From Eledone cirrhosa (taxonomy: Eukaryota): 64,000 nt of DNA. Below the pieces are notes generated by a model. It did not search any database, was not told the origin of the DNA, and worked only from the letters and a program-made list of their open reading frames with translations. The number at the start of each line of letters is the position of its first letter. Positions within the stretch are counted from its first letter, which is position 1. The DNA lies in NCBI GenBank assembly GCA_964016885.1, contig OZ024748.1, positions 39,804,001 through 39,868,000 of the forward strand, written 5' to 3'. Positions 1,977-64,000 of the stretch are shown here, piece after piece. A program made the translations under genes and the position numbers.

Positions 1977-2003
<27 letters not shown>

Positions 2004-2006
<3 letters not shown>

Positions 2007-10203: not shown

Positions 10204-10286
10204 CTGCAAACAAGTGTTTACAGTAGAATCTTTGCAACTAAACAGATTGTTAGGAACACGTGTAATTACTGTCTGAATAAAGTGAC

Positions 10287-15702: not shown

Positions 15703-15980
15703 TATCAAAAGACACGTCAGGGTGAGTATCGAACCCAGGAAACTACGATCACTAATCAATCGGAATATTATATAAGCTATTATATAAACTGAATAACTTA
15801 GAAAAGTTATGCCAGAACAAGAGGTCAGATGTTGCGCTAATATCTTACATAATTACAGAGATTCTTTTTTACAACGTATTAATAAATGTGTTCCACACCT
15901 ATCCCTGTTTTTATATACCCTACACAGACACCTATATATTAGTGTGCGTAATGTATACGTATAATATAATATATACATAT

Positions 15981-22472: not shown

Positions 22473-22706
22473 GTTATTTACTTTGTAAAATCTGATATTT
22501 TAAAACAAATTTTTAAAATAAAATTTTCGCCCCTGCAAGGGCGAAAAATGGGATTGCCTCCCAGCTGACAATTCAGGTTGGGGGTTAATCTACAAAATAA
22601 TGTTTTTTCAAACAATTAGTTCGGTTTTTTGCATAGAAATTAACAAAAAAGCTTACCGGCGATGTTCCACACGTCAGACAGAAAGAGAGATAGGTAGATA
22701 GATATG

Positions 22707-26290: not shown

Positions 26291-26607
26291 CGCTTGATTG
26301 GGTCTACTCCACCCCCTCCCCTCTTTTTCCTACTGGCAGGTTTAGCCACCATCTCCCCTAATAATTTGCAATCACAGAATTACTACTGACTTTTGACAAT
26401 CACTTTGACCATATATGGAATTACCCCTTGAGAAGATCGGCTATTTAAATACCAGGATAAATTTTCATTTAGTCCAGAATTAGCCGTCGAAACGGCTTGA
26501 GCTCAGCCGTCGGGGTCTTACTGGTTCCTATTACCCACTCTACTACCCCAAGTATTGAGTACTTTGGTGTGTTATGGTCCACCTGGTTCCTTACCACATT
26601 TCCTTCG

Positions 26608-26683: not shown

Positions 26684-26822
26684 GTTAAAATACTGGAGCG
26701 TGTTGGAGTAAAACAATATTATAGAAATGACAGTAAGAGGTATAGCTCAATGTAATTAAACAGAGCCGAAGAATTATGAAAGTAAAACAAAGAAGCCTTC
26801 AATACATCAAAAGTCTTTAATA

Positions 26823-26860
26823 GCCAACAATGTTTCGTCCTATTAAGGACTCATCAGGGC
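26823..26860 (-). ncRNA. Minimal type I hammerhead ribozyme
   Basis: Reverse complement GCC-CTGATGA-GTCC(TTAATA)GGAC-GAAA-CATTG-TT-GGC. Confidence 0.8.
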
Positions 26861-28534
26861 AAATAAAACAACAAGAAGTATTATCGGCCAATACAAGCCA
26901 GAAACTCCGAAGAATATGGAGTGTACATACACTAAAGTATTGCAAGATTATGGGTAAAAATATATAATAAAAATTACCAAGGAGGAGTATAACATTTAGA
27001 ACCATATTACAAATATAGTCCAAAGCAAAAACAATCCTAGAGCTAAACAAAGGTGGTTATATAGAGCAGGTATTATATATAATACAATATAATATAATAT
27101 AATATAATATACCAATATTAAAATTACAATAAAAATCAAAAGGTACAATATACATATGTATATATATACGCACACGTACGCACATATACACATACATCAA
27201 TACACATATCCATCTTCAACAGCACAAATTAAACCTTATTAAGAGTTTAAATATAAATAAGCATGATAGGAATAAAAATAATAATAATAATAATACATAT
27301 ACCCAATATACATGAGGTAATAATATGATATTATTATAAGTAGCACATATAATATATAATAAGCTATACAATTATATACTATATAATATAATATAATAGA
27401 ATAGATAGTCTCCGGTTAATTTACACAAACAATATAGATGTCACAATAATACTATAATAATAATATAATATAATAACATATATAATATACAATATATAAT
27501 GGCATTGAAGTTAACAAATCAATTCATATAGAGTTACAGAGTAGGTGAGGAAAATAAATTGTACAATATCCAAAATTATGATGGTACAAAAATATAAACA
27601 TCGTACATGGTATATAAAGTTTAACATATCACATTGTTACATATAATCAACGGTAAGTAATAAGGATCGATGGTCCTATAACCAATACAATATAAAATAA
27701 TTAACATAATATAATATATAATTACTTATAATTACAAGGTTGGTAAACAGACAAAAATATATGTGGATGAGTGAGTAAGGGCCAGACAGTAAATATAAAG
27801 CACAGTAGTATTACAAATAAAATAAAATAAAATAAAATAAATAGATAGAATCAGCCGGAAATTAAAAAACAAAAACAAAAGTATACATTCAGGTCTCACA
27901 TGCCGTTAAGTAAAAACTTAGGAAATAACCCCGGTAAATGACTCGAAAACCCTATTTGATAAATTAATATTAAAAAATGCTTCAAATATCCAATAAGGCA
28001 ATACTATATTAGCTATGGTTTAAGTAATCAAAGTTTATAAACGTTAATATTTCATTACAAATATTTACAAAAAGGAATGACATTTTTTACTATCATATAC
28101 ATAACGATATCTAAAAAACTGACTTAAGCAGAATTATGGTAGGCTAATAGGGACAGAAATAGAGAAATATATGGAGGATACAAAGGGGCATAAAATCATA
28201 GTCCATATACTATATTAAATATTAGAAAGGAGCGTAAAAGATGGGGGAGGATTAAATATAATTATAATCAATTTGGAGGGGTTGACAATAAGTTTATGTG
28301 CGCATGGGGGGAGGGGGGGGGTTATCCAAAGAAGAATCCAAATAAAAATAAAAATAAAATAAAATAAAATAAAGAAAAGTGAAATAAAATAAAATAATGT
28401 AAAATATATAATCAGATATATACTCATAAGGTGTTAATAGTGAAAATTTAATGCGTAAGAAGATAGATATGGTATAGTAGCCAAAAGATTATGAGAGCTA
28501 GAATAAAGAGTTGTCAAAAACCAATGATAATAAT

Positions 28535-29086: not shown

Positions 29087-29336
29087 ATCTAACCCTAACT
29101 CTAACCCTACCTCTAAATTTAAGTTTAATTCTAAACCTAACCCTAACCCTAACTCTAACTCTAACCCTAACCCTAACTCTAACTCTAACCCTAACTCTAA
29201 CCCTAACTCTAAACCTAACCCTAACTCTAACTCTAAACCTAACTCTAGCCCTACCTCTAACCCTAACTCTAAATCTAACTCCAACCCTACCTCTAACTCT
29301 AAACCTACCTCTAACTCTAACCCTACCTCTAACTCT
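29087..29336 (-). repeat. Degenerate telomere-like (CCCTAA/CTCTAA)n tract
   Basis: Hexamer repeats. Confidence 0.85.
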
Positions 29337-30156: not shown

Positions 30157-31940
30157 GTTCCTTGAGACTCAGTCATTGATGTTATTTAACTGGAAAGTTT
30201 GTTGAAATGAATATCAAGCCGCTACCTGCAGCCTCAGATATTCAGGACGTATTGGAGGGTTCTTGCTGTTCCCAGCAAGCATGCCTTTTGAAGTGTTCCA
30301 AAAAGCGGGGCTGGACTAATCTTCTTTAACCATCCTTGGAAACTCTTTGAGATAGTACCTAGTGCGCCTATGACAATCGGGACGACCTTGATTTCATGGC
30401 AGTTCCAAATCCTTTTTAACTCTCACTTTAAGTCCTGATATCGGTTAATTTTCTCCCTCTCCTTTTCTTGTACTCTCGTGAAAAATGGGCAGGCTACATC
30501 TACAATCAGGCACGATCTTTTTTCCTTGTCCAAAACCACCAGGTCAGGTCTATTGTGTTCTAATTTCTTGTCCGTCTGTATCCTAAAATCCCACAGCACC
30601 TTCACCTGATCGTTTTCTATCACCGACTCTGGCTTATGCTCATGCCACTTCTCAGAATGTGGTAAATTGTTTCCTTTGTATAGATGCCAGTGGATCACCC
30701 TGCCCATCACATCATGTCTCCAGCCTTTATAGTGAGTCTGGGCTTGGTGTTTACACTCGGATACAATGTGAGTCTCAGTCTCCTCTCTCTCCACAGATCC
30801 TACACATTGGACTAGCCTCCTTGTAAATATGGCGTTTCACCCACTTCGTTCTGAGGGCCTGCTCTTGCGCAGCCATTAGCATTCCTTCTGTAGCTTTTTT
30901 AAGGTCTCCTCTTTTTAACCAGTTCCATGTCTGTGGATCTCTAAATTCAGTTTTCCTAAAGAAGGTACTATGAAGGGATATTTCATGAAGGTTGCTCTTC
31001 CTCCTTGTTGTTATTTCCTCCTTGGACATCCCCTGGTCTATTGTCTTCTCCTTCAGTACAATTTTGAGCATTGGCTCCTTACTGTCAGTCGCGTATTTGT
31101 GCAGGTTGTTTTTCTCCATCTGAACACAGTCCTCTATGCTGATAAGACCTCTTCCACCTTCAGATATCCTTAAGTCGAGTCTATCGACATCACTCCTCTT
31201 GTGGAACATGTTGTAGATAGTCAATAGCTTCCTAGTCTTTCTATCCATTTCTTTTTGTTCAGCAACATTCTATTTCAGAATAGACACAGCTCGGGAATTC
31301 ACTGCACTTATGACATTCCTACTGTTCAGGTGTGACTTTAATACGCTCCTTACTCTCCTTATGTACTCAGATCTTATCAATTCCTTCATTTTTTTGTTCT
31401 TGATGTCATCTGCCTCCCGAACACCTAAATATTTGTATCCTTCTTCAGTGTCAATTTCCTTTATCATCTCATCTGTTGGTACATGGATTCCGTTGCTTCT
31501 GCTCAATTTACCCCTCTTCATCACTAGGACTCCACACTTATTAATACCAAATTGCATACATATATCATTGCTGAAAATACGGACAGTGTCAACAAGCACA
31601 TCCAACTCCTTCTCACTCTTCCCGAAGAGCTTAAGTTCGTCCATGAAGAGGAGGTGATTGATGGTAAGCTCTCCTTTTCCCAACTTGTATCCTGCTCTCA
31701 CTTTTCGCAATATAATGGTCAGGGGTATCAAGGCAAGGACAAACAGCAGAGGGGACAAACTCTCTCCCTGGAAGATACCTCTCTTGATCTTCACGCCTCC
31801 CAAGGATTCTCCACTCGATGTTAACTCTGTTTCTCAGGACTTCATACTTTTGCTCAACAACTGTCTGATGTTATCTGCCACCTTGAAGATCTCTAGGCTT
31901 TTGGTGATCCAAGAATGAGGTACCATGTCGAATAGCTTTT
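30157..31940 (-). mobile_element. R4/Dong-clade (RLE) non-LTR retrotransposon, 5'-truncated and frameshifted
   Basis: RGIFQGESLSPLLF, HLLFMDELKL, GGRGL, CRICG..ETETHIVSEC, RHD, LWDFRIQTDK..HNRPDLV..IVDVACP..EKI.RY; (TAA)n 3' flank. Confidence 0.88.
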
Positions 31941-33623: not shown

Positions 33624-34311
33624 CGGGGGTTGGACAAAATAATGGAAACACCTAGCATCATAGAATCATAATTTGGAAATATCTATAAAACCGTCAAAAG
33701 CTTGTTTATTTTTATTGTTCTCGGGGTGGTCATTAATTTTGGTAGTAATTTTGGTAGTAATTTTGGTAGTAATTTTGGTAGTAATTTTGGTAGTAATTTT
33801 GGTAGTAATTTTGGTAGTAATTTTGGTAGTAATTTTGGTAGTAATTTTGGTAGTAATTTGGCAGTAATTTTGGGAGCTGTACTTTTGTGATCCTTTCTAA
33901 CAATTCGCGTAAGAGTCCGACGGTATCTATCTGAAAGTTTTGGTTTTCTTCCGGAGTTTTGTTTCGACGAGGAGATTTTTCCCTCTTTCTCAAAGACTGT
34001 CATTACTTTCGAGACAGTACTTCTTGATACACCAAACATTTCGGCTGTTTTCGTTACGCTAGCGCCTGCCATACGAGCACCAACAATTTGACCTCTTTGA
34101 AAGTCCGATAGATCTGTCATTTTAATGAATTTTAATTACCTTTTTCTGATGATATCTGGAGAGAAACAGCAATTTTAACAAATCATATTAAGCAACACTA
34201 ATAATAAATATAAAAAAACATAAAAATAAACAATCTTTTGACGGTTTTATAGATATTTCAAAATTATGATGCTATGATGCTAGGTGTTTCCATTATTTTG
34301 TCGAACCCCTG
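33624..34311 (-). mobile_element. Tc1-like DNA transposon, internally deleted, with a 12 bp minisatellite expansion
   Basis: ~90 bp TIRs (C.GGGGTT.GACAAAATAATGGAAACACC), TA flanks, paired-type HTH MTDLSDFQRGQIVGAR..GRKPKLS; (AATTTTGGTAGT)n at 33735-33870. Confidence 0.9.
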
Positions 34312-34443: not shown

Positions 34444-34497
34444 ATATATATAGTGACGAAACATAAGTCAATTGCATGAACTCATAATCCTTTATTT

Positions 34498-34553
34498 ACT
34501 GCTATATATATTTCGATGATAGCCATTGAGTGGCTATGACCTCATCAGGCAGT
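34498..34553 (-). ncRNA. Minimal type I hammerhead ribozyme
   Basis: Reverse complement ACTGC-CTGATGA-GGTCATAGCCA(CTCAA)TGGCTATCATC-GAAA-TATATA-TA-GCAGT. Confidence 0.85.
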
Positions 34554-36125: not shown

Positions 36126-37010
36126 CACCTTTCTAGTGGGTCCGGGTATGATTTTACATTCATTTAAATTATTGATGTATTGATTTATTGATATTTTTTA
36201 TCTGATTGTCCCGAATCTTCTATTATCGATTTTTTATCGTATCGTTGATTTTAGACTTGTTCTATGTGTGACGGTATTTTAACGATAGTTATAGCTCTGA
36301 TTCATCTGAATTATTGAGCCCTCTCCCGCTCATTTCGAATTTTGTTTATCGTGAACTCGTGCGCCGATTTTTCGATACTCGATCATTCTAATATTTTTAG
36401 CTCTGGACATAGCTATCCACCAGTTAATTTTATTGCTCATTTTTTGTCGATTCTATTGAGTGATGAATAGCTCCTGTTTTATTTTAACATGTCTATTGAG
36501 CACTTTTATTCGATATGTGTATTTCCACATTTCCTCGAATAGTTTTCGCGGATGTAGAGGTTATCTCCCTTGCCGGATTCCATGTGCGTATTTTGCTTGT
36601 AGTTAGCCTCTTATCCGCTAGGACGAAGCTCGTTGAAGAAGTAAACTTCCAGTCCGCTTGCTCTAGAAGTCTTATATATTTATATGTGAGCTGATAGAGT
36701 ACAGTCTAAGGATTTACAGAAACCCAAGAAGCTAGATTTTACACCTTTCTAGTGGGTCCGGGTATGATTTTACATTCATTTAAATTATTGATGTATTGAT
36801 TTATTGATATTTTTTATCTGATTGTCCCGAATCTTCTATTATCGATTTTTTATCGTATGGTTGATTTTAGACTTGTTCTATGTGTGACGGTATTTTAACG
36901 ATAGTTATAGCTCTGATTCATCTGAATTATTGAGCCCTCTGCCGCTCATTTCGAATTTTGTTTATCGTGAACTCGTGCGCCGATTTTTCGATACTCGATC
37001 ATTCTAATAT
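36123..37010. repeat. Element with ~270 bp direct repeats (616 bp period) inserted in (TA)n
   Basis: 36123-36394 is repeated at 36739-37010. Confidence 0.8.
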
Positions 37011-37020
37011 ATATATATAT

Positions 37021-38220
37021 ATACTATAAAGCTAACGGCCGTATGTATGTAACAAACTTTTCGCCAAACGGCTGGACCAAACAGCACCAAATTTGCACTA
37101 TAGATGTAACTTTTTCCAAGTAAAAAAGTGAGGGTATTTTTGTCTACTGAATTTTGTTAAAAGATTAAAGACATTACTTAAATATTCACTTCTTTAAAAT
37201 TTCAAATGTCAACACTTCCTGTTATACGACATTCCTCACTTTTTTTCGTCGCACAACATTCCCCTCTTTTTCTTAGTCTGTCTTTTTAGATAGATATAGG
37301 GCTATAACGTAGCGTCTTTATAATATGTCTCTGTATGTCTGGCTGTCTGTATTAGATAACGTTTTTCGAAATATTTACTTCTGGGTTCACAGATTGATTT
37401 TTTTTAGTTTCAGAAGTTAAGGGTGAAAGCCTTTGCTTAAACATTGTTATTTTAATATATATATTCGTGTACAGATATTTTGCATACACAAAAACAAAAA
37501 CCTATTTATTTCACTAAAGCACAGACGGCTTATCGTCATTGTTACTGTTCGAGGTTAGAGGCCCACAGTCTATCCAAGATCTGAGAACCATCAATAGCCA
37601 ACAATGTTCCACTTACCGTTTGGCTTGCCAGATGCGTGGTTTGTTACACGATGACACCTATTGGCACCTCACCCTGCAAGAAGCAGCAACTGCTAAAGTC
37701 CCTTCTCAGCTGCGAAAACCTTTTGCTATTATGCTGCACAACTGTGATCTCGCCACCCCGAAAGTCTAGCTGAGGACATCCTCCACCGCACACGCAGACA
37801 CAATCCGAGCGTAAGATACGATGTCTTTTTCAATGAGGCGCTCATCTGTCTTGAAAACAGTGTCCTGGAGATTGGTGGTAGGCTTCTAAGTCACTACAGC
37901 TTACCTGCTCCTGGCAGGAGTGTCCTGAGGTCAATGTCTACAGAGCTTCTCCGCGAGACGAGCTACGAGATCAGTGCTTCTCCAGTGGTCAATTGTATGT
38001 AGGATGCTCTAGGGTGAGCTCGCCAAACTATCTCTTCATCTTTGCTCCGGAGGGCCGAACAAAAAATATTGTATACTCTGAGGCTCTAACAATGTAATTT
38101 AAATATTTTCTGTTACTTGGAATTTTCATTTTGGTTGTACAAATTATTGTTTGTTAAAAAATGTGTTCTCTGTTCAGCCTTTATTGTTGTAACTCTCAAT
38201 TATCTTTAACGTACTGGCTG
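37021..38220 (+). mobile_element. Internally deleted Helitron (copy B)
   Basis: As for 2004-3200; ORF 37539-37769. Confidence 0.75.
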
Positions 38221-38824
38221 CTGAACTGGGGAATCCTAAACCTATTCAAACCCAACATCAGAGCACGTTAACCATTTTGGATAGTGAAAGAAAAAGAGAA
38301 AAATTTCAAATCTTTTATGAGGGATATGCAAATGAAGTAGAAGGGTAGACTGAAAATATCGTTATATTTAGACACCAGGTACATTTAAATAATTATTAGG
38401 ATACTTTATAAAAGAAGATGAAGCAGAAGAAGGAAGAAAGATAGGCTCATATTATTATTAGGGTGCAAGTAGATTTAAAAATTAAAAATGTGTTGAAGTG
38501 GTAGAATACTAAACCAAAAAGTGTTCAATATATAACCAAATCATGAGTTATAATATATATATAATGTATATAATTATATTTTAAGGAATTAAGGTTGTAG
38601 GTACACTTTAGCTTATTATATTGCAACCAGTCAATTTAGCTTATTATATTGAAACCAGTCAATTTAGCTTATTATATGGAAACCAGTCAATTTAGCTTAT
38701 TATATTGCAACCAGTCAATTATATACATATTTATATAAATAGATAAAAATATATACATGCTGTTATTAATTCAAATATAATTTAAGGGTTACGAAGGATA
38801 TGTGTTTACATTTTCAATATATAG

Positions 38825-38895
38825 TTAAGAAAAAAAAGTCCAAGATGGCACGGTTGGGGTGGGCAGGAAGGAGACGTCCATACCATAATGCCAAT
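38825..38895 (+). CDS. Predicted upstream exon of pseudoenzyme copy B
   Basis: Same splice sites and open frame as 3805-3875. Confidence 0.55.
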
Positions 38896-38994
38896 GTAAG
38901 ACAGTAGCTATTGTCATTTTATCGTGTCAGTTGATATTACGTTAAATATAATTCCGGTTTTATCTGTGATTTACTGATATAGCTTACGTCAATT

Positions 38995-39390
38995 GTTTCT
39001 TCTTCGTCCAGTTATTTCTGAGAGGGTCGTGGGGTCAGAGTCCTCCAACACTCCTTCCTGCAAGTCATGTCAGAAGCAACCGTTTCCAACTGATCCGGCT
39101 GGATCTCCCAAGCATGACCAGCCAAGCTCATGGATGTTAGCAAACCATCTTACTCAGGGTGGGTCGATCCCTGGGTTTCTTGTCGGTTTGTTTTGCCCGT
39201 AAAATCTGTCCGGTGATTCTTTCCTGAGACATTCTAACCACATGTCCATAGTATCAGAGCTGTGATCTCTCAATTCGGAGAAGTAGCGGCTCTACCTGGA
39301 GTAACTCTCTGATCTCAGAACTACGCACCCTATCGAGTAACATTACTCCAAAGACCCTTCAGAGGAATCCCATTTCGGCCGCTTGTATTG
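38995..39390 (-). mobile_element. RTE-type LINE fragment (intronic, copy B)
   Basis: Duplicate of 3975-4370. Confidence 0.65.
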
Positions 39391-39453
39391 TTTCTATTTA
39401 CGAAATAACACAACTGAGGATTTTAATAGTGTCAAATTTTCGTTTCCTTTCAG

Positions 39454-40951
39454 TTCCGACTTTATCGAACCATTTAAAATACATATTGTAGAGAACATAA
39501 AGATCAATAACCGTAACGACAGATTAATTGCTCTCGAGAAAGCTGACTACAACATTTTTAAATTACAACCTGAAGATGTCATGATCGATTTCCTTACAGA
39601 TGCTGGCACTAATGCTTTCAGTCTTGAACAAAACGCAAGAATATGGATGGGTGATGAAAGTTATGCCGGATCTACTAGTTATGAAACTTTGAAAGACGCG
39701 GCAACATATATTTCTGGTTTTGAAAACATTCTGCCAGTTTTTTCTGAATGTATCAGCGAAGAGATTGTCGCTTCTTATTTCACAAAAGCTGGAGATAAGG
39801 TTATTGGGAATACTTTTACTTATTCACTTGAGAAGCATATAAAGGATCTTCATGCTGAAGCGATTTCTTTGTTAGATTGGTCAGATAATAATTTTGCAGG
39901 AAATCTAGATGTTCAAGCACTCAAAAACTTATTGGCAGAAAATGATAAAAAATCAATTTCCTTTCTTATAATGAATGTACCAGCAAAAAGTAGTGGTGGC
40001 CAACCAGTTAGTATGTCAAACATGAAAGCAGTTTCTGATCTCTGTCGCGAACATTCGATTCCGATATACATCGAAAGTAGTATGTATGGTGAGAACTGTT
40101 GGCTCAATAAAATGTACGAAGAGGCTTACTTCAATAAATCGTTAGTTGAGATATCGCAAGAAATGTTTTCTTTTTTCGATGGCTGCATTATTTCTGCTAA
40201 AAGAGATGGTAGAAGTGAGATTGGAAGTGTCATTTGTCTTCAAGACAAAGAAATGACTCGAAAATTGGGCACTGTTATTACTCTTAAAGCAGGTTTCATA
40301 ACTTATGGTGGGATGGCTGGCCGAGATATGGAAATGGTAGCGGTTGGCATGCGAGGTGCTTTGGATGAACAACTGCAAGACTATCGACAAAAACAATTGG
40401 CATTTTTCAAAAGATCCCTGAAGGAATTTGGTGTTCCGATTGTGGAGCCAGTCGGTTGTAATACCATATTCATTGATGCCGAAAATGCTTTTCCTAACTG
40501 TAAACACGCGTTTTATCCAGCCTGGTCTTTATCTTGTGCTGTTTATATCGTCGGGGGTATCCGATGCGCAGAGTTTGGTCAAGTTACTCGTCCAACAAGC
40601 AGCTTACCCACTAATCATTTTCTGAAAGACCGAGAATTACTAAAGCTTGAGATACCTCGTTTCATCTATACGACTTGTCACATTTTCTATGTTGCCTATG
40701 TTTTCGCTCAGCTTATTTCACATGAAATGCTTTCTGGAATGAAACTTATTGCCTGCTCCGAAGACCAAATAAAACTCGTGAAAATAAAAATGAAACCAAA
40801 TCATTCTCTGGAATATGACGATATCCAACTCCTTCCGGTACAAGACTGTGAACACATTCACTTCTTTAAAAACATATCTAATCAAAGAGTTATGAAAAGA
40901 AATTCAATCGCCGAGGCATCTTCTATATGGTCAGTCGACATTCCTTCTTAA
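39454..40951 (+). CDS. Tryptophanase/tyrosine phenol-lyase-like protein lacking the PLP lysine, main exon, copy B
   Basis: 7 aa differences from copy A; SAKRD (AGA at 40202-40204); acceptor CAG at 39451-39453. Confidence 0.9.
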
Positions 40952-41479
40952 AAAGGGGACAAACACGTTAGATAATGTAATCGTAGACACAAAAAAGACG
41001 TGGTAGTCATGATTGGAACGTCCCTGATCATAGAATTGCTCTGTCAATGTTCACCTGAACTTAAACAACAGCAACAACAACACAGAGATTTTTTTTGTTG
41101 CACCCAAACAGGATTCTGTAAATTCTAGATTGTACATTCTTTTATTCTTTTACTGGTTTCAGTCATTAGACTGTGGCCATGCTGGGGCACTGTTCTTTTA
41201 CTGGTTTCAGTCATTAGACTGTGGCCATGCTGGAGCAGTGGTCTTTTACTGGATTCAGTGATTCTACTGTGGCCATGCTAGGGCACCAATTGATTGTTAG
41301 TTTGTTTTTTTTAATTGGTTTTATTCCCAACAATTAAACTATTGAACATGATTTTGAATAGAAAGTAGGGGAAAACATTGACAGTCTTGTCAAATATAGT
41401 TTTAATATTATGTTAACAAAAAAAGGAAATAAAATATCTTTGGAAACTTAAATATATTTCTTGTGATGTTCTTTTACAA

Positions 41480-41725
41480 TTATTTCACCAATATATAATT
41501 AATATCAAACATTGTGATGTATGTTTCACCAATATATAATTAATAACAAACATTGTGATGTATGTTACACCAATATATAATTAATATCAAACATTGTGAT
41601 GTATGTTACACCAATATATAATTAATATCAAACATTGTGATGTATGTTTCACCAATATATAATTAATATGAAACATTGTGATGTATGTTTCACCAATATA
41701 TAATTAATATGAAACATTGTGATGT
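41480..41725. repeat. 41 bp minisatellite (copy B)
   Basis: Same unit as 6460-6748. Confidence 0.9.
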
Positions 41726-42629
41726 GGTTGTGATAATTCGGGGAAAGATGGTACAACGAATATTAGATAAACTAAGGTGAAAAGATACAACAAATCAGCA
41801 TTTTAAACTTTCGTCTTATATTTCTTGATATTTTGAGGTGAGAAACTTTTTTCAAAAGAAAGAAATGGAGTCTGGTGTTGTCAACGCCCAAAGAAATGTT
41901 GATAAACGATTTATTTACATCAACTTATTATTGATGGTGACATGCTTTTGTTTCACTTTAAAAAAATATTATAATAAGGTGACATACTAATATAAATATT
42001 ATTTTAAAAATAAAAAACAAATCTTGAAACATCTTATGACTGTGGCAGTGGCAAGGTTTATAGAGTTAAGAAGCCTCACAACCATCTGATTTCTGGTTCC
42101 TTTAGACTACATGGCATCTTAAAGAAGTGTCTTTCTGCCATAGGTTCGAGTCAACAAAACGGACAGTTTGCCCTTTTCGGCTTGGCGGGCAGCAGGGCCT
42201 GGACTGGTGGTGGAATGCACCAGGTTGGCACTTGCAATTAATTGTAATATAACTGATAGATGTTGTTTCAATTCTCTGCCATTAATTGTAGATCAACGAC
42301 AACATTGTTGCAGTAGTTATTTCAATTATGTGCCATTAATAATCTGTGTTACGAACACTACATAAATAGTCTACAGGTGTTACCTTGATTTCACCAGATG
42401 GAAATATCAAAATCAAAATTGATTATGTAATTGTTCCAAACAATATTCTCGAAATGGTGAAAAACTGCCATGTGTATATTTCTACAGATATTGGTCTAGA
42501 ATATTTCAACTTAGAGACTGGAAAACACAAACGTTATTATCATAAATGTACTGTGATTGTGTGAGGCTTAATTATTAAAGATTGTAAAATCCATTCCCTG
42601 TGAATTATATCCAAGAATTTTCTTTTTCT

Positions 42630-43420
42630 TCCTTCACTTATTCCTGAGAAGGTCGTGGGGGAAGAGTCTTGAAACACTCCTTCTAGCAGGTCCTGTCAGA
42701 AGCAACCATCTCGAACTGATTTGGCTGGATCCCCAAGCGATACCTGCCAAGCTTATGGATGTTATCCAACTATCTTGCTCAGGGTCTACTCCTGGGTCTC
42801 CTGCTGGTTGGTTTTGCCAATAAAATCTGTCCAGTATTTCCTTGGACATTCTAGCCATATAATATGTAATATCAGAGCTATGATTTCTCAATTCGGAGAA
42901 GTATCAGTTCTACCAGGAGTGATTCACAAGTCTCCAAGCTACACACACTATCGAGTAATGATACTCCAAATACCCTTTTGGAGGAACCCCATTTTGGCCA
43001 CTTGTATTTGCGATTGTATTCTTTCAGTCATTACACAAGATTCATGACCATAGGTAAGGGTTGGCACGAAAATCGAATTGAAGATAGTGAGTTTGGTGTT
43101 TACACCTACCTCCCTTCTTCTGATTACCAAATGCCAAAGCTGTCACATTACTGCAGCAGCTCCTGCAATTATTGCACTTAATTCGGCCTCCTGCCTTCCA
43201 TCACTCGTGACCATGGCCCTGAGATACTTGAACTTCTCTACCAACTTCAGTAGAACTCCTTTCGCATGTAGAATGCACTGCGCAGGCTTCCTTTAGAAGA
43301 CGAGTGTCTCAGTTTTCACAGCACTGAATTTCATTCCAGCCATGCAGCACTCTGCATCAAACCTATCAAGTGCAAGTCAGAGATCACCTTTTGTTGAGTT
43401 TGTAACACCATGTTGTCTGC
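42630..43420 (-). mobile_element. RTE-type LINE fragment (longer version)
   Basis: Extends past the copy A breakpoint toward the RT core (FADNM.L). Confidence 0.75.
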
Positions 43421-45867: not shown

Positions 45868-45914
45868 TATATATATAAAACTGAATTTACATTTTTTTTT
45901 CCAGTCTCCAAGCA

Positions 45915-47294
45915 ATGGAACCTTACAGGATTAAGGTATTTTATCCAGTCAATTTAATCCCCAAGTCTGACCGTATTGCATGTCTAAAAGCTGCCAACTA
46001 CAACCCCTTTCTACTTAAATCGAAAGACATATTTATAGATTTGCTAACAGATTCTGGTACAGGAAGTCAAAGCAGTGCCCAGTGGTCGGCTATGACTAAA
46101 GCCGGCTATTCAACTATTAATTCCGAATACGTTAAGGAATTTGTACGTACAATTCAACACATTACCAATTTCAAACATGTATTTCCAGTTCATCAAGGTC
46201 GAGGAGCCGAAGGTTTGTTGGCAAAACTCCTACTGAATAAAGAGAGTGTTGTACTGAGTAATTCTCTCTTTGACACAACACGAGCACACGTTGAGTCATC
46301 TGGTGCAATTGGAATAGATTTGGCAACAAAGTCTTCAAAATTCTTAGGTGATGCCGATGTGGAAAAATTTGAAGAAACACTGGATGAATATGGTTCTAGA
46401 GTTCATCTTGTAATAATAACCTGCACCAATAATGTGGTAGCCGGAGCTCCTGTGAGCATGCAAAATATAGAAATCATAACAAAATTATGTCGAAACAAGA
46501 ATATCCCAGTTATAATGGACGCATGCCGTTTTGTTGAAAATGCTTATTTTATCAAGACCTTAGACGAAAAATATTCTAAACACACAATCTTAGATATTGC
46601 CAGCGAAATGTTTTCTTATTTTGATGGTGCAACTATGTCTTTAAAGAAAGATGGTATGAGCAATGAAGGTGGGTTTATAGCTTTCAACAACGACAAATGG
46701 GCCACCAAAATATTTGACATAATCGAATATAAAAGTGGTTATTCAACTTACGGGGGAATAACTGGATCAAATCTTGTAGCATGTACTGTCGGAATTTCTG
46801 AGGCTATGAACGAAAATTACCTCCGATCAAGAATCTATCAGGCTAAATTACTGGCTGATTTCTTGGAAGATAATAATATTCCCGTATTTAAACCAGTAGG
46901 GGCCCATGCCGTCTACGTGAAAGCAAACAAAGTCTTGCCACACCTTGATTTCTTGAAGTATCCAGCATGGTCCCTTAATTGTGCCGTATATATCGAAGGT
47001 GGTATTCGATGTGCAGAAATTGGCAATATAATGTTTGGTGAAAATTCAGATGGAACAAAACAAATTCATCCCTTTGAATATGTGCGTTTGGCTTTACCCA
47101 GAAGAACCTATACGGTCAACCATCTGCATTTTGTGGCCAAAACTTTTGGTTTTGTTGCCAAAAAAGCCCATTTAATCCACGGAATGGAAATTGTCAAATC
47201 TTCGCATCTCCTAAGACATTTCACAATTTGGATGAGACCATTAAATGAATACCACCTTGAAAAGAATAATAATCAGAAAAAAATAAACTGTTGA
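45915..47294 (+). CDS. tnaA: Tryptophanase (tryptophan indole-lyase)-like PLP enzyme, 459 aa
   Basis: MEPYRIK, IDLLTDSGT, HQGRGAE, FDTTRAH, TNN, DACRFVENAYFIK, MSLKKD (PLP Lys at 46647-46649), GIRCAEIG, VRLALPRRTY, LRHFT. Asp in FDTT, Ile in EIG and His in LRHF are tryptophanase-type rather than TPL-type. The GDEAY motif is lost. Confidence 0.9.
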   Translation: MEPYRIKVFYPVNLIPKSDRIACLKAANYNPFLLKSKDIFIDLLTDSGTGSQSSAQWSAMTKAGYSTINSEYVKEFVRTIQHITNFKHVFPVHQGRGAEGLLAKLLLNKESVVLSNSLFDTTRAHVESSGAIGIDLATKSSKFLGDADVEKFEETLDEYGSRVHLVIITCTNNVVAGAPVSMQNIEIITKLCRNKNIPVIMDACRFVENAYFIKTLDEKYSKHTILDIASEMFSYFDGATMSLKKDGMSNEGGFIAFNNDKWATKIFDIIEYKSGYSTYGGITGSNLVACTVGISEAMNENYLRSRIYQAKLLADFLEDNNIPVFKPVGAHAVYVKANKVLPHLDFLKYPAWSLNCAVYIEGGIRCAEIGNIMFGENSDGTKQIHPFEYVRLALPRRTYTVNHLHFVAKTFGFVAKKAHLIHGMEIVKSSHLLRHFTIWMRPLNEYHLEKNNNQKKINC

Positions 47295-49693: not shown

Positions 49694-50459
49694 TATATAT
49701 GGATAATAGGATAAATTTGGTACAACCAATAAATTATAAAGGCAACAAATATTTTCTTGTTTTAATATTGCAGTTTATACATATCTTAAGAAGCAGTATA
49801 AGAAAAGCTTACATTTCATTTTCAAACTTAAGTAAAAAATAAAATATATATTTATTTTCAATTTTTAAAATGCGAGCAAAAACATAAAATCGATTTGAAT
49901 ATTCATCACACATACATATATATACATGTATATTATTTCGAAAAAAAAGGGGGTGGGGTAAAGTTTTATACAAAAAAATGATGACCAGTTCGAATATTTG
50001 AGAGAAAACTCAAGTATATTCGAACTGCTCAGATATTAAAAAAATTTCTTTTATTAATATTCAATATTTAACATCTAATATTTGATAAAATTGTTTTACC
50101 AATCGAAACCAGTTATATTTAATGCAACAATTATAAAATTATTCATTCTGTCAGATTAAAGAAAAAATAATCTTTTAATATTCCCTGGACATTGGCAATT
50201 TCAACCCCCTACCAACAGTACTGCTGGTTCACTCTGGGTCACAGCGTCTGAGACAAGTCAGAGCGTAGTGTCCAAATAATTATTTTAAATTATTCTATGA
50301 AAAATAAAAATTAATTACACGTATCTAAATATCACAATTTGTTTTGTTGGATGATCTACCAACTTTGCCATCAACCAGTCATTTCTATCAAATAATTTCC
50401 AATAATATTTGTGAATATGAAAAGGTAAAGAAAGATCGATATATGTGCGTGTATATATA

Positions 50460-52025
50460 ACGTCTGAATAGCTCAGGCTGTCATACCTGACAGTCCTCAG
50501 TGAAATATGTATAACGTCTGAAGAGCTCAGGCTGTCATAACTGATAGTCCTCAGTGAAATATGTATAACGTCTGAAGAGCTCAGGCTGTCATAACTGATA
50601 GTCCTCAGAGAAATGTGTATAACGTCTGAATAGCTCAGGCTGTCATACCTGACAGTCCTCAGAGAAATGTGTATAACGTCTGAAGAGCTCAGGCTGTCAT
50701 AACTGATAGTCCTCAGTGAAATGTGTATAACGTCTGAAGAGCTCAGGCTGTCATACCTGATAGTCCTCAGTGAAATATGTATAACGTCTGAAGAGCTCAG
50801 GCTGTCATACCTGATAGTCCTCAGAGAAATGTGTATAACGTCTGAAGAGCTCAGGCTGTCATACCTGACAGTCCTCAGTGAAATGTGTATAACGTCTGAA
50901 GAGCTCAGGCTGTCATACCTGACAGTCCTCAGTGAAATGTGTATAACGTCTGAAGAGCTCAGGCTGTCATACCTGATAGTCCTCAGAGAAATGTGTATAA
51001 CGTCTGAAGAGCTCAGGCTGTCATAACTGATAGTCCTCAGTGAAATATGTATAACGTCTGAAGAGCTCAGGCTGTCATACCTGATAGTCCTCAGAGAAAT
51101 GTGTATAACGTCTGAAGAGCTCAGGCTGTCATAACTGATAGTCCTCAGTGAAATATGTATAACGTCTGAAGAGCTCAGGCTGTCATAACTGATAGTCCTC
51201 AGTGAAATATGTATAGCGTCTGAAGAGCTCAGGCTGTCATACCTGATAGTCCTCAGAGAAATGTGTATAACGTCTGAAGAGCTCAGGCTGTCATAACTGA
51301 TAGTCCTCAGTGAAATATGTATAACGTCTGAAGAGCTCAGGCTGTCATAACTGATAGTCCTCAGTGAAATATGTATAACGTCTGAAGAGCTCAGGCTGTC
51401 ATAACTGATAGTCCTCAGTGAAATATGTATAACGTCTGAAGAGCTCAGGCTGTCATAACTGATAGTCCTCAGTGAAATATGTATAGCGTCTGAAGAGCTC
51501 AGGCTGTCATACCTGACAGTCCTCAGTGAAATATGTATAACGTCTGAAGAGCTCAGGCTGTCATAACTGATAGTCCTCAGAGAAATGTGTATAACGTCTG
51601 AAGAGCTCAGGCTGTCATAACTGATAGTCCTCAGTGAAATATGTATAACGTCTGAAGAGCTCAGGCTGTCATAACTGATAGTCCTCAGTGAAATATGTAT
51701 AACGTCTGAAGAGCTCAGGCTGTCATAACTGATAGTCCTCGGTGAAATGTGTATAACGTCTGAAGAGCTCAGGCTGTCATAACTGATAGTCCTCAGAGAA
51801 ATATGGATAACTTCTGAAGAGCTCAGGCTGTCATAACTGATAGTCCTCAGTGAAATATATATAACGTCTGAAGAGCTCAGGCTGTCATAACTGATAGTCC
51901 TCAGTGAAATGTGTATAACGTCTGAAGAGCTCAGGCTGTCATAACTGATAGTCCTCAGTGAAATATGTATAACGTCTGAAGAGCTCAGGCTGTCATAACT
52001 GATAGTCCTCGGTGAAATGTGCATA
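50460..52025 (+). ncRNA. Tandem array of 29 x 54 bp units, each a minimal hammerhead ribozyme motif
   Basis: Unit ACGT-CTGAAGA-GCTCAGGCTGTCA(TAAC)TGATAGTCCTCAGT-GAAA-TATGTA-TA; the self-complementary ACGT forms stem I with the next unit. Confidence 0.8.
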
Positions 52026-52244
52026 GCAGAGTTTTAAATAAATCTGAATTGACTGGTAATGGCCTCCAACCTTTTAATAGTGTGTGTGTGTGTATACATA
52101 TGAGATTGTTTAGCCTTATATACCTTTCCACAATAATATATATATATATATAAGTAAAAGTGGTATTTAATTTGTTGGAAGTCCGACAAACATAGATGTT
52201 TATAACTGATTTAGAGCACTCAACAAATTACTGGAGTAAATATT

Positions 52245-53099
52245 CAATGATATTAAATAAATGGAAACTATATTTATAAAAGTATATTTATAAACTATAG
52301 TTTTATAAATATAGTTTTTTAAATATAGTTTTATAAATATAGTTTATAAATATAGTTTTATAAACTATATTTATAAAACTATATTTATAAAACTATATTT
52401 ATAAAACTATATTTATAAAACTATTTTATAAGACTATTTTATAAAACTATTTTATAAAACTATATTTATAAATCTATATTTATAAAACTATATTTATAAA
52501 ACTATATTTATAAAACTATATTTATAAAACTATTTTATAAAACTATTTTATAAAATTATATTTATAAAACTATATTTATAAAACTATATTTATAAAACTA
52601 TATTTATAAAACTATATTTATAAAACTATATTTATAAAACTATTTTATAAAACTATTTTATAAAACTATATTTATAAAACTATATTTATAAAACTATATT
52701 TATAAAACTATATTTATAAAACTATTTTATAAAACCATATTTATAAAACTATATTTATAAAATTATATTTATAAAACCATATTTATAAAATTATATTTAT
52801 AAAACTATTTTATAAAACTATATTTATAAAACTATATTTATAAAACTATATTTATAAAACTATATTTATAAAACCATATTTATAAAACTATATTTATAAA
52901 ACTATATTTATAAAATTCCCTATCCAGTGAATTTCCAACCGATAAGGTATGCTTTTCGTGGGTATGTCTCTATTTATAAAACAAACTTTGTATTTTATCT
53001 GATGAAAGCATACCAATGTAGTCTTGGTTACCCTTGAAATATATATAATAAAATAAATATGGTTTTATAAATATAGTTTCCATTTATTTAATATCATTG
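52245..53099. mobile_element. Inverted-terminus element with an internal 13-14 bp AT satellite and a hammerhead
   Basis: CAATGATATTAAATAAATGGAAACTATATTTATAAAA is inverted at 53063-53099; (AAACTATATTTATA)n at 52265-52915. Confidence 0.65.
52991..53055 (+). ncRNA. Minimal type I hammerhead ribozyme
   Basis: TATTTTAT-CTGATGA-AAG..ACCAA..TTGGT..CTT-GAAA-TATATA-TA-ATAAAATA (8 bp stem I). Confidence 0.8.
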
Positions 53100-53120: not shown

Positions 53121-55025
53121 TCATTAGTTAAGCAAAACAAGACAACAAATTTCACAAGGAAGACATTATTAAAAGATTGTCAACATATTTTAGTTTGATG
53201 TAAGGAATGTAGAGAATAATAATAATTTCTACTTTAGGCACAAAGCCAGCTATTACCCAGTACATTACTGGTACTTTATTTTATCGACCCCGTAAGGATG
53301 AAAGGCAAAGTTAACCTCGGCGGGATTTGAACTCAAACCGTAAAGGGACGTAACTATGCTAGAAATCATGGCGTTCAACCCTCTGCCAATCCACCGCCCT
53401 TTTATATAATAATATTAATAATAATAATGTCCGTTTACAATTGTTTCGCTACTCCATATAATATTTCTGGATCAAATGATTATATATCATTATTGATCTG
53501 GTTCAGTTGAAAATAATTACTATAGGTAAAGATAGAGCAGCTCATCGGAACTTCAAAAGGAATATAAATTAAAATAAGGAAAGAATGTTACATAAATGTA
53601 ATGTTCCATATATTGGTATTTCACTATGGTGACCTGGGTATATCAATTGTCTGCCATAGTCGAGCAGTATTCTTCTGTCGAGGCTGCATTGTGTGAGATC
53701 TGCCTATGGGTAACAAGATGGCCGCCAATGTACATATTTACCTTACTAATTAGAGGGTGGTTTCAGGGGAAGTAACTCCTCGAGAGATTAGAAATTGTGG
53801 GTAGTTTATAGTTAAGTGCTAATTTTTTTTATTTTGAGACAATGTAAGGGAGGTAACTTATAATTATTTAAGTTAGTTATAGCTATTTAACTTATTAGCT
53901 ACAAGTAAAAATGGGGCTAGATGACTATGTTGGCGAAGGAATTAGCCCTTCGATGTTGACAGCTAATAGTTACCTTCGTTCTATCATTAATCAGTAGAGG
54001 TTGTGATAGAGTTATGTAATATGCTTCAGTAAGACAGAGGTCACAAGATTTTCTTCGTCCATTGAACGGTTGGGCCCTGAGTGTTAGTGAGTGTTCAATG
54101 TTGGTTAATTTAAGGTTTTTAATGAGCCTAGCTAGAGATGTCGAACATCTGTTGTTAGGGTCTCAGAAGGAAAAAGAGTGCGCGTTATAGCGTACCTTAA
54201 AAGGGTTAGAGGTAGACCCAATATAGGAGCTGGTATGCGAAGCAGTTTTAACTGTGCACCTATAGACTATGTTGGGTGTCAGGCAATGTCCATTTAGTGG
54301 GCATGCATTAGGGTAACGGCAGTTGCAGTTACTTCTGCGGTTAGTGAGAGTAGGGTTGTTTAACCTAAGCGGTTGGTCAGTGCTAGAAGGATTAGATGGG
54401 GGATGTGTGCTACTAGAGTAAGTATTGGTGTAGTGGCGTGGTGTATCCGATGGGGGTGGTGGTACCGCGGTGTGGGAGTTATACTGTCTTAGTTTATCAT
54501 GGTTACTGAATGTGATGTGGCAAGCTAAGTTAGGTATTGTGGAGAATGAGATTTTAATGTTATTTTTATTAAAGAGTTTGTAATATCTATGGTGGGGGAG
54601 GGGTTTAGATAGGATAGACAAGAAGCATTTAGGGATATTAGTGGCTAGATTAGATGAGAATGGGGGGTTAAGCCAGGTGATATTTCTACGCATATTCCTT
54701 CTAGGGGTTCTAGTGGAGTTGGAACATTACATTTATGTAACATTCTTTCCTTATTTTAATTTATATTCCTTTTGAAGTTCCGATGAGCTGCTCTATCTTT
54801 ACCTATGTTAATTATTTTCAACTGAACCAGATCAATAATGATATATAATCATTTGATCCAGAAATATTATATGGAGTAGAGAAACAATTGTAAACGGACA
54901 TTATTATTATTATTATTATTATTATTAGTCTCTACATTCCTTACATCAAACTAAAATATGTTGACAATCTTTTAATAATGTCTTCCTTGTGAAATGTGTG
55001 GTCTTGTTTCGCTTAACTAATGAAT
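53121..55025 (-). mobile_element. Penelope-like element, 5'-truncated, with inverted pLTRs
   Basis: GIY-YIG fragment 54163-54693 (WLNPPFS..CNC..CPLNGHCL..IVY.C..YIGST..FK.R); 53121-53607 is inverted at 54720-55025; SINE A nested at 53226-53399. Confidence 0.85.
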
Positions 55026-55777: not shown

Positions 55778-56241
55778 ATGTTAAAGGGTTAGTATGCAAT
55801 CACTTTGATGTCTTTGAAATGCACAAAACAGGATTATATAATTTTGTTATTAAAATAATGTTATTTCTCTGAGGAACTGGAATCATATGATTCCAGTTCC
55901 TCTAAGAGAAATAACAACCCAACCAGGAACTGGGCATATCGGAGTATTGACAGAGTTAAACACCTCAACAACATGTGTACCCGTCTCTACCACACCAATT
56001 CGGACTGCCTGAAGAGGTCACAGCCAAAGATGGCTGTCACCAAAATATATATAGCAGTACACCGTTAATAAACGAAGCCAAATTTTAAATATTTGACTAA
56101 TTTATTTTGTTTATGTATATATATATATATATATATATTACAAAGAGAGACGGTTTTATGTATACATCCTCTGTTTATTATATAATCCTGTTTTGTGCAT
56201 TTCAAAGACATCAAAGTCATTGCATAATAACCCTTTAACAT
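55778..56241. mobile_element. Inverted-terminus element with a palindrome and a variant hammerhead
   Basis: 55778-55841 is inverted at 56177-56241; perfect palindrome at 55871-55902; hammerhead variant at 56004-56058 with GAAA changed to AAAA. Confidence 0.65.
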
Positions 56242-60616: not shown

Positions 60617-63600
60617 TCAAGGATCAATTTCCCCCTCGTCCTTCTGCATATGAAAGTCTGCTGTCCAGGTTGGTGGTTTGCGACTTCTTTGCGATCTCCG
60701 CAGTGTTGGGGCGGCACTTTGGGTTTCCTCTTCCTCGGAGTCCGTTGACACAGTGATTCTACGGACATCCAGGACATGACGTGGTACTCCGTCCAAGGAC
60801 ACATTGTTCTGGGAATTTATGGCCGTCACCGTTCCCCTTCCCCATTGAGATGTGCAACGTGCATATGGGGGCTTAACCCAGACTTCTTCGCCCACCTGCA
60901 CGAATGCACTCTCTCTCCCCACTGGCCGTTGTGATGGCGTGCACGGGTGCCGCCACTCGTATCTGAATACTGCTCTGTGTGGCACCGATTCCTCGACCTG
61001 TCTCACCCGAGGGGACATGTTGTACCAGAACACTGCCTCCATTGATGAGATATGACCCCGCTCCACCATTGCCTTGATCGTCCGGTGGTGTCGCTCTACA
61101 ATTCCATTCCCGCTCGGCCTGTGCGCTGCTCTGAAGAAACGGTCCACCTTCCATCCATCGAGCATCTCCCTCAGCGCCTCCGAGCGCAACGCTGCGCTGT
61201 TGTCCATCAGCAGTTCGTCCACAGGGCCCCGCTCCAAGAACACCTCTCTCAACGTCCGCATGATTTCCTCGGCCGTTCCAGTCTTCATCTCCCTCCATAT
61301 CGCCATCCGTCCTGATCCACAGTCGACCATCGAGAGGTACGTTCCCTGTCGATAGTGTGTTACATCCACCGCCAATCGCTTCCAGTCGCGATCCACCGAG
61401 AGGCTTCCCGTTTCGTGCACACCCGGGGCGGGATCAATGGACTGACATCGGACGCAGCCTCTAACCACCCTTTGAACACTGTGTCTGTTAACGTCCGAGT
61501 CGATTCTCCTGGCTAGGAACAGGCTCCTATCCACTCCCATGTGGTGCATGTCATGCAACCCTTTCAGATCCGACTCGGTCAGCCGACACACGGCAGCTAT
61601 CTCATCATCTACCTCCTCCGGTGCTTCCATCCAGGCTTTATTCACCCTAGTTAAGACGTCCGCCCTATTTTTCTCTGAGAGCACGAAAACTACACTCAGC
61701 TTCGGGTCGAACTCGGTGGCCAGCTCTCCTAAAGTTCCCAGGCGGCGCTTTATCAGCATCTCCGCCGCCCCTCTCGTTCGCACTCTCTTCTCACTGGTGA
61801 GCACTGATCTCACCCATCCGAGTACAGTAGCCGAGTCGGTGCGTATCTCGATGGATGCGCATTCCCCACCTCAGGGCGAGGTTCACCCCTCTCAACACTG
61901 CGTCCAGTTCGGCTACATTGATGTGGTTGCAGTCGTCCTTCTTCCTAAGCCAGGCTGCATCCTCGACCTCAACACCTCCTATCTCCAACGTGACACCCAG
62001 CGCTATGCTGCTGGCATCGCACCATACGGTCCCGCTCTGTGATTTGGGAACATACCACCCTCCCCACGAACTCCTGCATCGTGACCATCTCTTGACATAG
62101 CTGCATGCCGTCCGGAGCCACCCAGCAATCGGGTAGTCACCCACCAACTTTCCACACACCGAGAAAAGCTCCCGCCTACTCATACTTGGGCCCAGTTCTG
62201 GAACTTCATTTCCCCTCTGGAATACCAAGACGCCCGTCCTGGCTCGCCGTAGCCTAAGTCCCAGCACGGCTCCTCCCTCCAACGCTTCTGACGGTTTCGC
62301 AGCCAGTCCATACCCCTGTAAATGGCTCCTGACCTCCGCCGCCGACACCACAAACTCGTCCACTAGGATGTCGTCATGTAGGAGTTAGTGGCCCTCTTCA
62401 TCTTGTCGGCCTTTCCCAGAATGGCCTTGAGGACCACCGCCATGATCTTCGGTGCGGAGCTCAGCCCGAAACCGAGCCTGGTCAGGCAATGTGTCCGGCC
62501 CTTATACCTGACCAACTGATACTGCCAGAGCTTCTCATCTATATGCAATTGCAAGTATGCCGACTTTAGATCTACGATTGCGTCTCCACTCACGCAGGGT
62601 TTCCCCCACAGAAATCCGTGACCTCGCCACTCGTGTGGCATGACACGTGCTCGTTCAGTTCCCGAAGGTCCAGCACCGGCCTCACCTTGTTCTTCGTGGG
62701 TTGCGCCACCGCCATTAACGGCAATACTCCGCACTTCACCTCCTCTTTCCAGGGAAGCAGTATGCCCTCCTCAATCCATCTCTCTACCTCTCGCTCGAAC
62801 TCGCCCCTAATGTTTCCCTTCAATGTGTGTTGATAGCAGCCCACTTTGGTCTTCAGTGTTGGTGGTTCTCTCTTCCAGTACCACTCAACAACCCATCGCT
62901 GCCTATCGAACACGGCCTTGAAGTCTTTGTCCTGCACAGTGTAAGCGGGGTATTTCTCCTCGTGGGCCTTCTGGTTCTCCTGTCGCGTACTCACAGCGCA
63001 TACCGATGCAGCGGCACCAAACGACACACCGACGTTGTTCACTGTGACGCCTCCTAGACGGCAAATTGCGTCCATGCCCATAACCACGCCGATCCCATCC
63101 ACCACGCTGTCTACTACGATGGCAGAAAGCCTTATTTTCCTTCCCCGTACCGCTATTTCCATCTCGCTGCGATCTCGGCATTCAATTTTCGTGCCATCGA
63201 CTGCCCTTACGCTGCTCTTCCCTCTTCACCTCTGCGCCACCCCCGCGATCACCAGTGTCGTCGTACAACCCGTGTCCACGAGGGCTCGCTGTGGCTTTCC
63301 CCTCACGAAGACACCCACCACGGAGAGCGCCTCTACTCGTAACGGGCAACTACCGGCGCAGTAGTTCCTCTTGGATCGTTTCCCTGGTCGCAGTTAGTAG
63401 CGATGTGGCCTGGTCGCTTACACCGGTAGCATATTATTTCCGGCCTTGACTCTCTGCAGTCTCTAGCCATGTGCGGGCCCTGGCACCGAAAACAGCGACC
63501 TCTAAACGTTCGCGGGCGACCGCGTGCCGTGGTTGCCTACCTTTCACCATTTCGCTGCCAGCTGTCTTGAGCCTCTGTAGTTGCTATCGCCGCGACACTC

Positions 63601-64000
63601 TTCTTGGCATCTTCTGCTATGATCCGGGCTATTTCCACCAGTGAACGCATTTCCATTTCTTTGTAACCCGGGACTTGCTGCAGTTTCACCGCTATCTCGT
63701 CTGGAATTCCATTTATGAACGCCAACCGCACCGTGCGTTCGCATTCCACCTGATATCCAGCCAACATGGCCAATCGCCGTATTTCCGCTGCGAAAAGGTC
63801 AACGCGTTCACCGTTCCATCTAATTCTTGCCAGGTTAGCGAAAGCGGCTAACGGTCCCTCTGCGAACGCTTCCATCATGCGCCTCTCAATCTTTTGCGCA
63901 TCTCTTTGGCTGTGTTCGTCCAACTCAAGGAAGAGTACCAACGCGTCCCACTCGACGTACAGTGCCATGAGGCCAGCCACATCTTCTATCTTCTGCAAGC
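60617..64000 (-). mobile_element. Gypsy/Ty3 LTR retrotransposon internal region (gag-PR-RT-RH-IN), frameshifted, runs off the window
   Basis: gag with CCHC knuckles, ALVDTG protease, RPVLDLRELN/DLKSAYLQ/RLGFGLSSAP RT, CDASS..HINVAEL RNase H, HHMG..C..C/DVTH/MDN/GNGIVER integrase; PPT-like GAGGGGGAAA at the end. Confidence 0.92.

Follow-up and report, generated by a model that had tools for sequence, protein, structure and literature searches.

A spacer-free array of 54-nt minimal hammerhead ribozymes in Eledone cirrhosa, most likely duplicated in place within a Penelope-like copy

The array and its surroundings

The window analyzed here is a 64,000-nt stretch of Eledone cirrhosa DNA (GCA_964016885.1, contig OZ024748.1, positions 39,804,001 to 39,868,000, forward strand), to whose first letter the coordinates below refer. 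It contains a tandem array of hammerhead motifs between two microsatellites, a lyase-like ORF upstream and three solo minimal hammerheads:

34490..34552 (-): solo minimal hammerhead of another family, same architecture, core at 34548
45915..47294 (+): uninterrupted tyrosine phenol-lyase/tryptophanase-like ORF, ending ~3.2 kb upstream of the array, on the ribozyme-sense strand
50439..50459 (no strand): TA/TG microsatellite at the 5' end of the array; the upstream flank of the parent element is absent here
50460..52025 (+): tandem array, 29 × 54 nt, every unit a single minimal type I hammerhead whose predicted cleavage site follows ...GUAUA
52026..52079 (+): 3' tail of the parent element, comprising the native stem I 3' arm and a short-tail end, and resembling the second subfamily
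52080..52100 (no strand): TG/TA microsatellite after the tail, a likely insertion target
52991..53055 (+): solo minimal hammerhead with an A/U-rich, 8-bp stem I, core at 52999
56005..56062 (+): solo minimal hammerhead of the same architecture, core at 56009, broken by G12>A

The units of the array are exactly 54 nt long, follow each other with zero spacer and are laid out as ACGT/CTGAAGA/31-nt stem II/GAAA/TATGTA/TA; 11 of the 29 are identical to the consensus. The 11 core positions are whole in 27 units, which carry CUGANGA, GAAA and UH in type I order, the exceptions being units 1 and 4 (both G8>U). Core plus the G10.1-U11.1 pair is kept in only 20 units, with U11.1>A in eight, and stem III carries A>G in 13. 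Both the array and the parent element thus have G-U, or in those eight units A at 11.1, in place of the G10.1-C11.1 pair of minimal hammerheads. The stem III strand pairs with itself over eight positions, two of them G-U. When the array unit is shuffled 40,000 times with its circular dinucleotide composition kept, a relaxed minimal-hammerhead descriptor finds a match, on either strand, in 2 of the shuffles. An earlier, sequence-only reading of this DNA had described 29 spacer-free units, each one hammerhead, with the conserved core present in most; the unit count proves exact and the description holds.

In an alignment of eight rows (two array units, two parent solos and four other hammerheads of the genome), both sides change in 8 of 12 pairs and 96.9% of cells pair. 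Slid alignments pair in 25-45% of cells and 0 of 500 shuffles reach the observed value, a result that is not to be read as a probability for rows that are few and partly related. The array thus combines stems I and II that covary with a short palindromic stem III, as in minimal type I hammerheads. Its intact cores, the shuffle test and the cross-family covariation indicate that the array motif is, judged by its sequence, real ribozyme architecture. The C-C mismatch of stem II and the palindromic stem III, which had been noticed in other hammerheads of the window, do recur at 34548(-), 56009(+) and 52999(+), and also in a second dispersed family of the genome described below. The profile search that had been suggested as a check fared less well: with E<=1 as the limit, the array is missing from the Rfam matches. 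Two canonical-looking type I hammerheads elsewhere in the window, at 1697-1768 (+) (HH9, 37.7 bits) and 26820-26863 (-) (Hammerhead_1, 25.4 bits), score under the gathering threshold.

The window array is one of nine paralogous arrays on C8, of 12-95 units each, which are carried in a recent segmental duplication of ~55-65 kb whose paralogues are 98.7-99.8% identical. The segment with the lyase ORF is present in all nine paralogues, each time in the ribozyme-sense orientation, and for the ORF at 45885-47294 the structural matches are bacterial tyrosine phenol-lyase and tryptophanase (E ~1e-99). Two further long uninterrupted ORFs of the beta-eliminating lyase family are found at 4321-5928 and 39341-40948 (+), all three sitting in the segment amplified at least nine times on C8; these lyase ORFs in an animal genome possibly go back to an old horizontal transfer. 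An internal duplication of ~6.3 kb (1989-8291 and 37007-43259, 98% identity) contains one lyase ORF and minisatellites of 28, 48 and 41 nt.

Other repeats of the window include a 27-nt minisatellite at 10285-15703 (201 copies; both strands have long open frames, and the hammerhead motif is absent) and degenerate interstitial telomere-like (CCCTAA) tracts at 8290-9253 and 29088-29336. LINE-like, LTR-like and Tc1/mariner-like remnants, recognized by eye from translations, lie at 17000-26300, 30800-31830, 61400-64000 and 33700-34135 (all -). The ORF remnant at 54166-54726 (-), which we take to resemble the C-terminal part of a Penelope-type reverse transcriptase, has no match in Pfam.

An assembly artefact is an unlikely source of the array: ordered variants differ among the paralogues, and arrays occur on C1, C7, C8, C773 and C1765. 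Contigs from four sequencing runs of one study span both array ends, not the array length, and these runs may derive from the source sample and so are not independent.

The parent element and the stem I junction

The 54 bases 3' of the array (52026-52079) belong to a dispersed family, for which a 31-letter pattern finds 507 matches and its control finds 0. The family comprises at least 507 scattered, non-coding copies that diverge by ~7%. A solo copy reads ...TTTTG CCGT CTGAAGA ... TATGTATA ACGG AG..., so that its stem I arms are CCGU/ACGG, and a distal helix, missing from the inner array units, extends stem I. The genome-wide search for solo relatives with stem covariation, proposed in the sequence-only reading, therefore turned out in its favor, and its picture of a ribozyme-only concatemer drawn from a real hammerhead family is borne out by solo relatives with covarying helices.

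The parent element is a head-to-tail unit of 1.2-1.8 kb. At L229, L234, L237 and L257 the hammerhead and tail continue into the element body, forming partial tandems or pseudo-LTRs, and L229 contains two hammerheads on the same strand 1170 nt apart. Copies are 5'-truncated and have two alternative tail ends; in 6 of 30 loci the parent tail is found on both strands as inverted copies, and in 27 of 30 a TA run lies within 230 nt of the cleavage site, clustering near +50-70 and +150-180. Such 5' truncation, inversion of 5' copies, tail ends and (TA)n targets are among the marks of Penelope-like elements as these are described in PMC8557442 and PMC11167929. The 1.2-1.8 kb unit has no intact ORF, in particular none for a reverse transcriptase plus GIY-YIG, and a Pfam search with two parent fragments gave 0 matches and no protein-coding link to a Penelope reverse transcriptase or endonuclease. 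We treat the parent as a putative non-autonomous Penelope-like derivative, by structure rather than by protein homology.

Direct reading of the solos explains the ACGT that joins the array units: it is the 3' arm ACG(G) overlapping the 5' arm (C)CGT at their common CG. Because the arms of a stem are reverse complements, the self-complementary CG forms a direct repeat exactly one hammerhead apart. By the same logic, we infer that a self-complementary dinucleotide in any stem arm would have a direct repeat on the other arm, one ribozyme away. Stem I had been read earlier as a self-complementary ACGU shared between neighbors; the sharing is real, but identical arms are not ancestral, since the parent arms are CCGU/ACGG and ACGU is the product of the junction.

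The junction pattern has 644 matches in the genome, one of them on the reverse strand. The nine C8 arrays give 317, and a satellite on the unplaced contig C1765 plausibly supplies the remaining forward matches. The junction is also found at four further loci that retain parent sequence on both sides: C1 has two dimers, C7 a 12-mer and C8:35.9 Mb a trimer. The same junction therefore occurs in copies with different flanks and of different subfamilies. Parent tail ends the arrays on C8, C7 and C1765, and every array end that was read sits in a parent copy.

Several of these arrays carry changes of their own when compared with 45 ungapped solos (9 of 54 were set aside for gaps or truncation). In each C1 dimer, two changes common to both units are found in 0-1 of the 45 solos. 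C1765 opens with a satellite of ~40.9 kb (positions 1-40900; L290, L292-L294, L300) built of a 54-nt hammerhead, cut by the contig start and ending in the parent tail; its pattern has 697 matches, and the first 100 listed are all on C1765. Its units share the fixed changes G17A (0/45 solos) and T22C (1/45 solos), and we regard it as independently derived. The second dispersed family (559 matches) has stem I arms GCUGU/ACAGC, and on C773 (L288:330-680) it forms a hexamer of 58-nt hammerhead-only units joined as ACA[GC]TGT. All six units share an 8-nt duplication missing from the one solo read, and three of them show GAAA>AAAA at the first copy; the private duplication could give a stem III that closes within one unit. 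We thus count at least five separate births in two families under one junction rule, from searches that covered hammerheads with TATRTATA as stem III.

Some candidates did not survive reading. Five zero- or short-spacer matches on C1-C4 were not hammerhead tandems. One C21 match and the four matches to a third junction proved to be solos, and in four of these five a TA repeat marks the 5' truncation. At L302, L303, L304 and L301, solo hammerheads of two other families are 5'-truncated in such a way that they follow a TA repeat and open directly with the stem I 5' arm; truncation thus often stops at the ribozyme boundary. Searches for the reciprocal 54-nt deletion gave 0 matches and those for a junction with a longer spacer gave none, both with strict patterns that have low sensitivity at the ~7% divergence of the family.

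Origin of the array and predicted activity

As the array ends in the parent tail, it was probably duplicated inside a parent copy, and we propose that it is most likely a satellite formed from the hammerhead of a 5'-truncated, non-autonomous Penelope-like copy by duplication in place. We put the probability that it originated by duplication at the stem I dinucleotide, followed by neutral satellite growth, at roughly 0.6. The proposed course starts from what is observed, namely hundreds of old solo copies with the stem I arms CCGT...ACGG. A structure-assisted slip or repair at CG would then duplicate exactly the ribozyme and leave a palindromic ACGT junction; the junction is seen in the DNA and the mechanism is our proposal. 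The dimer may subsequently expand and be homogenized by unequal exchange or slippage like any minisatellite, be carried along in the ~55-65 kb segmental duplication, and perhaps sometimes enter other solos by ectopic conversion. None of the three steps would require catalysis. The sequence-only reading had invoked slippage between identical stem I arms: a slippage-like origin in stem I is indeed likely, but the arms are reverse-complementary and have only CG in common. Its other suggestion, rolling-circle reverse transcription of a tiny circle of 54 nt, cannot have been the origin of the array, since a solo has one cleavage site and no ACGU junction.

Duplication in place is favored by the rare or private changes common to the units of both C1 dimers, the C1765 satellite and the C773 hexamer, by the copy numbers of 12-95 among near-identical paralogues, by the lack of purifying selection and by the predicted rod folds described below. 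Against it, the microhomology amounts to just 2-3 nt, and changes shared by neighbors can also arise by later homogenization, so that they do not prove birth at the DNA level. Plain slippage would moreover also yield reciprocal 54-nt deletions, for which the strict search returned nothing. Further difficulties are the distribution of A21G, by which some arrays were probably copied between loci, and the first unit of the window array, whose first bases are the junction-type ACGT, so that it starts at or close to the point of predicted cleavage, a position ambiguous with the TA repeat. This start would fit the end of a self-cleaved RNA, a microsatellite-mediated deletion or a TA-primed truncation alike.

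The missing reciprocal deletions and longer-spacer junctions would be expected if the first duplication had instead occurred during retrotransposition, with a Penelope reverse transcriptase switching template at the CG of a dimeric hammerhead. The 5' arm of one RNA would pair with the 3' arm of another, two hammerheads would be written in a row, and later growth would again be ordinary satellite expansion at the DNA level. This route explains a unit of exactly one ribozyme and a stem I junction in two families, and it fits the inversions and partial tandems of the parent family. Nevertheless, the locus-private changes of the C1 dimers and the private 8-nt change of C773 are simplest if duplication followed insertion, and the two negatives in its favor come from the strict, insensitive patterns mentioned above. 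We hold a template switch to be a possible origin, of clearly lower probability than duplication in place.

Among 335 units, core mutations are not depleted: the 11 core sites carry 7 distinct alleles and the 43 other sites 29 (p = 0.54). Among the C1765 units that were read, GAAA is unchanged in 7 of 29 and in 23 of 33, and about half of the satellite units have GAAA>GGAA; expansion thus does not need an intact ribozyme. In ViennaRNA predictions, multimers form rods via the GAGCUC palindrome and CUGA/UCAG. The predicted probability of the active site is ~1e-4 for the monomer, ~3e-4 when the following unit serves as stem III partner, ~2e-2 in an isolated trimer when the partner lies two units away and ~1e-7 (summed) for the central unit of a 7-mer, in a nearest-neighbor model that ignores Mg2+, tertiary contacts, kinetics and proteins. 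The parent's own dimer is predicted to show the same competing fold and is likewise disfavored. A core also cannot cut the unit just before it, because both arms are the same ACGU. An RNA-editing signature was not found: on the strand, A>G is no commoner than T>C among distinct alleles (5 each). Predicted folding and the unconstrained core disfavor self-processing of an array transcript, which would probably cleave weakly at best and likely only with a helper protein or high Mg2+. The array is, to judge from its DNA, probably a neutral satellite growing like ordinary satellite DNA.

Certain variants nevertheless recur between loci. A21G (4/45 solos) is fixed in the C8 cluster and on C7 and occurs in the second and third units of the trimer at C8:35.9 Mb, and T32C is common to C7 and the C8 cluster. 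The trimer has a resident-type first unit, after which its units and the start of its tail match the 3' end of the C8 cluster, including A40G (2/45 solos) and tail A1G (0/26 solos). Because the host copies differ in subfamily and flanks yet share variants, units were probably copied between loci by one route or another; ectopic DNA conversion suffices for the shared variants, and an RNA route is also possible. Quasi-palindrome correction can create changes that restore hairpin pairs, and T32C, which restores such a pair, may have arisen in this way.

These shared variants and the start of the window array at the predicted cleavage site are also what a minimal mobile retrozyme might leave behind, in which the multimer is transcribed, self-cleaves to 54n-nt RNAs, circularizes and is reverse-transcribed by a Penelope enzyme into new loci or resident solos. 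The site predicted for the isolated trimer is in keeping with this, as are published minimal hammerheads, which cleave weakly as dimers and trimers (PMC4209133) or, in one case, need the protein of their element, in a system where the ribozyme is dispensable for insertion in vitro (PMC11167929). Such a retrozyme cannot, however, account for the first junction, and every array end that was read carries the parent tail. The core is unselected, about half of the units in the largest satellite are mutated in GAAA, rod folds are predicted to prevail in long multimers, and ectopic conversion explains the shared variants equally well. In addition, eight of nine Xenopus tandem dimers were uncleaved in vitro, according to a preprint (bioRxiv 10.64898/2026.07.22.740005). 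We therefore consider a mobile retrozyme unlikely. The same doubt applies to the wider proposition that hammerheads with a stem I dinucleotide repeatedly spawn ribozyme-only repeats, of which the A21G lineage (C8 and C7) is transcribed, self-cleaves into circularizing 54/108-nt RNAs and homes into solos via a Penelope reverse transcriptase.

Co-option of the array to cleave or terminate read-through transcripts coming from the lyase gene, which lies 3.2 kb upstream, is highly improbable: the ribozyme-sense orientation behind the ORF in all nine paralogues goes back to one recent duplication and so is a single event with the odds of a coin toss, and neither unit number nor core is constrained.

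Comparison with known hammerhead repeats

Even if all of these loci are inert, the series from dimers and a trimer through 12-95-mers to a 41-kb array documents how a satellite arises from a single known seed, with every stage represented. It also provides a testable rule: where stem I contains a self-complementary dinucleotide, this sets the monomer, and the units come to be joined by a palindrome. Tallies of "active retrozymes" that rely on the motif alone are too high when they include such repeats. If multimers should indeed cleave and circularize, an animal genome would contain in them a ribozyme replicon about as small as can be conceived.

The minimal hammerheads in the pseudo-LTRs of Penelope-like elements, as presented in PMC4209133, likewise have a 4-bp stem I, a long stem II and a dimer-forming palindromic stem III, and are mostly dispersed solos of truncated elements, as in the parent family. 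They occur as pairs ~3 kb apart or inverted, whereas here the motif alone is the repeat unit, neighbors share one palindromic stem I strand and G10.1 pairs with U instead of the usual C. Non-LTR retrozymes are also tandem, with one type I hammerhead per unit and up to large multimers, but are described in PMC7229834 as ~170-400 nt long, mostly with canonical ribozymes, and expressed as circles; the array is 54 nt per unit, minimal and spacerless. It shares with the 2020 description of non-LTR retrozymes the tandem arrangement with one type I hammerhead per unit, and lies outside its canonical monomer of 150-450 nt.

The operational definition in the preprint of Li, Clavereau and Pollet (2026; bioRxiv 10.64898/2026.07.22.740005), at least two consecutive canonical or minimal hammerhead units, includes the array. 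The preprint gives consensus lengths of 51-972 bp for tandem non-LTR retrozymes derived from Penelope-like elements and proposes local amplification of the ends of these elements into minisatellites. The statement in the sequence-only reading that hammerhead repeats come in units of hundreds of nucleotides thus describes the usual case but does not extend to families with a consensus from 51 bp. Tandem hammerhead repeats from Penelope ends are therefore a class already reported computationally, and the same probably holds for their size. The sample of the preprint is mostly vertebrates, and in its main text we found neither monomers made of the ribozyme alone nor a palindromic stem I common to neighbors nor a junction rule; in the main texts of the hammerhead, Penelope and minisatellite literature we found no description of the latter two. 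Satellites from transposable-element fragments start from a microhomology-based duplication and grow by unequal exchange (PMC12628747), and newt and Schistosoma satellites contain hammerheads, some with broken cores (PMC8490949). Compared with these cases as published, the duplicated fragment here coincides exactly with the boundaries of the ribozyme, in at least five births and two families, and the junction rule suggests, at the level of sequence, how tandem hammerhead repeats could arise from Penelope ends as has been proposed.
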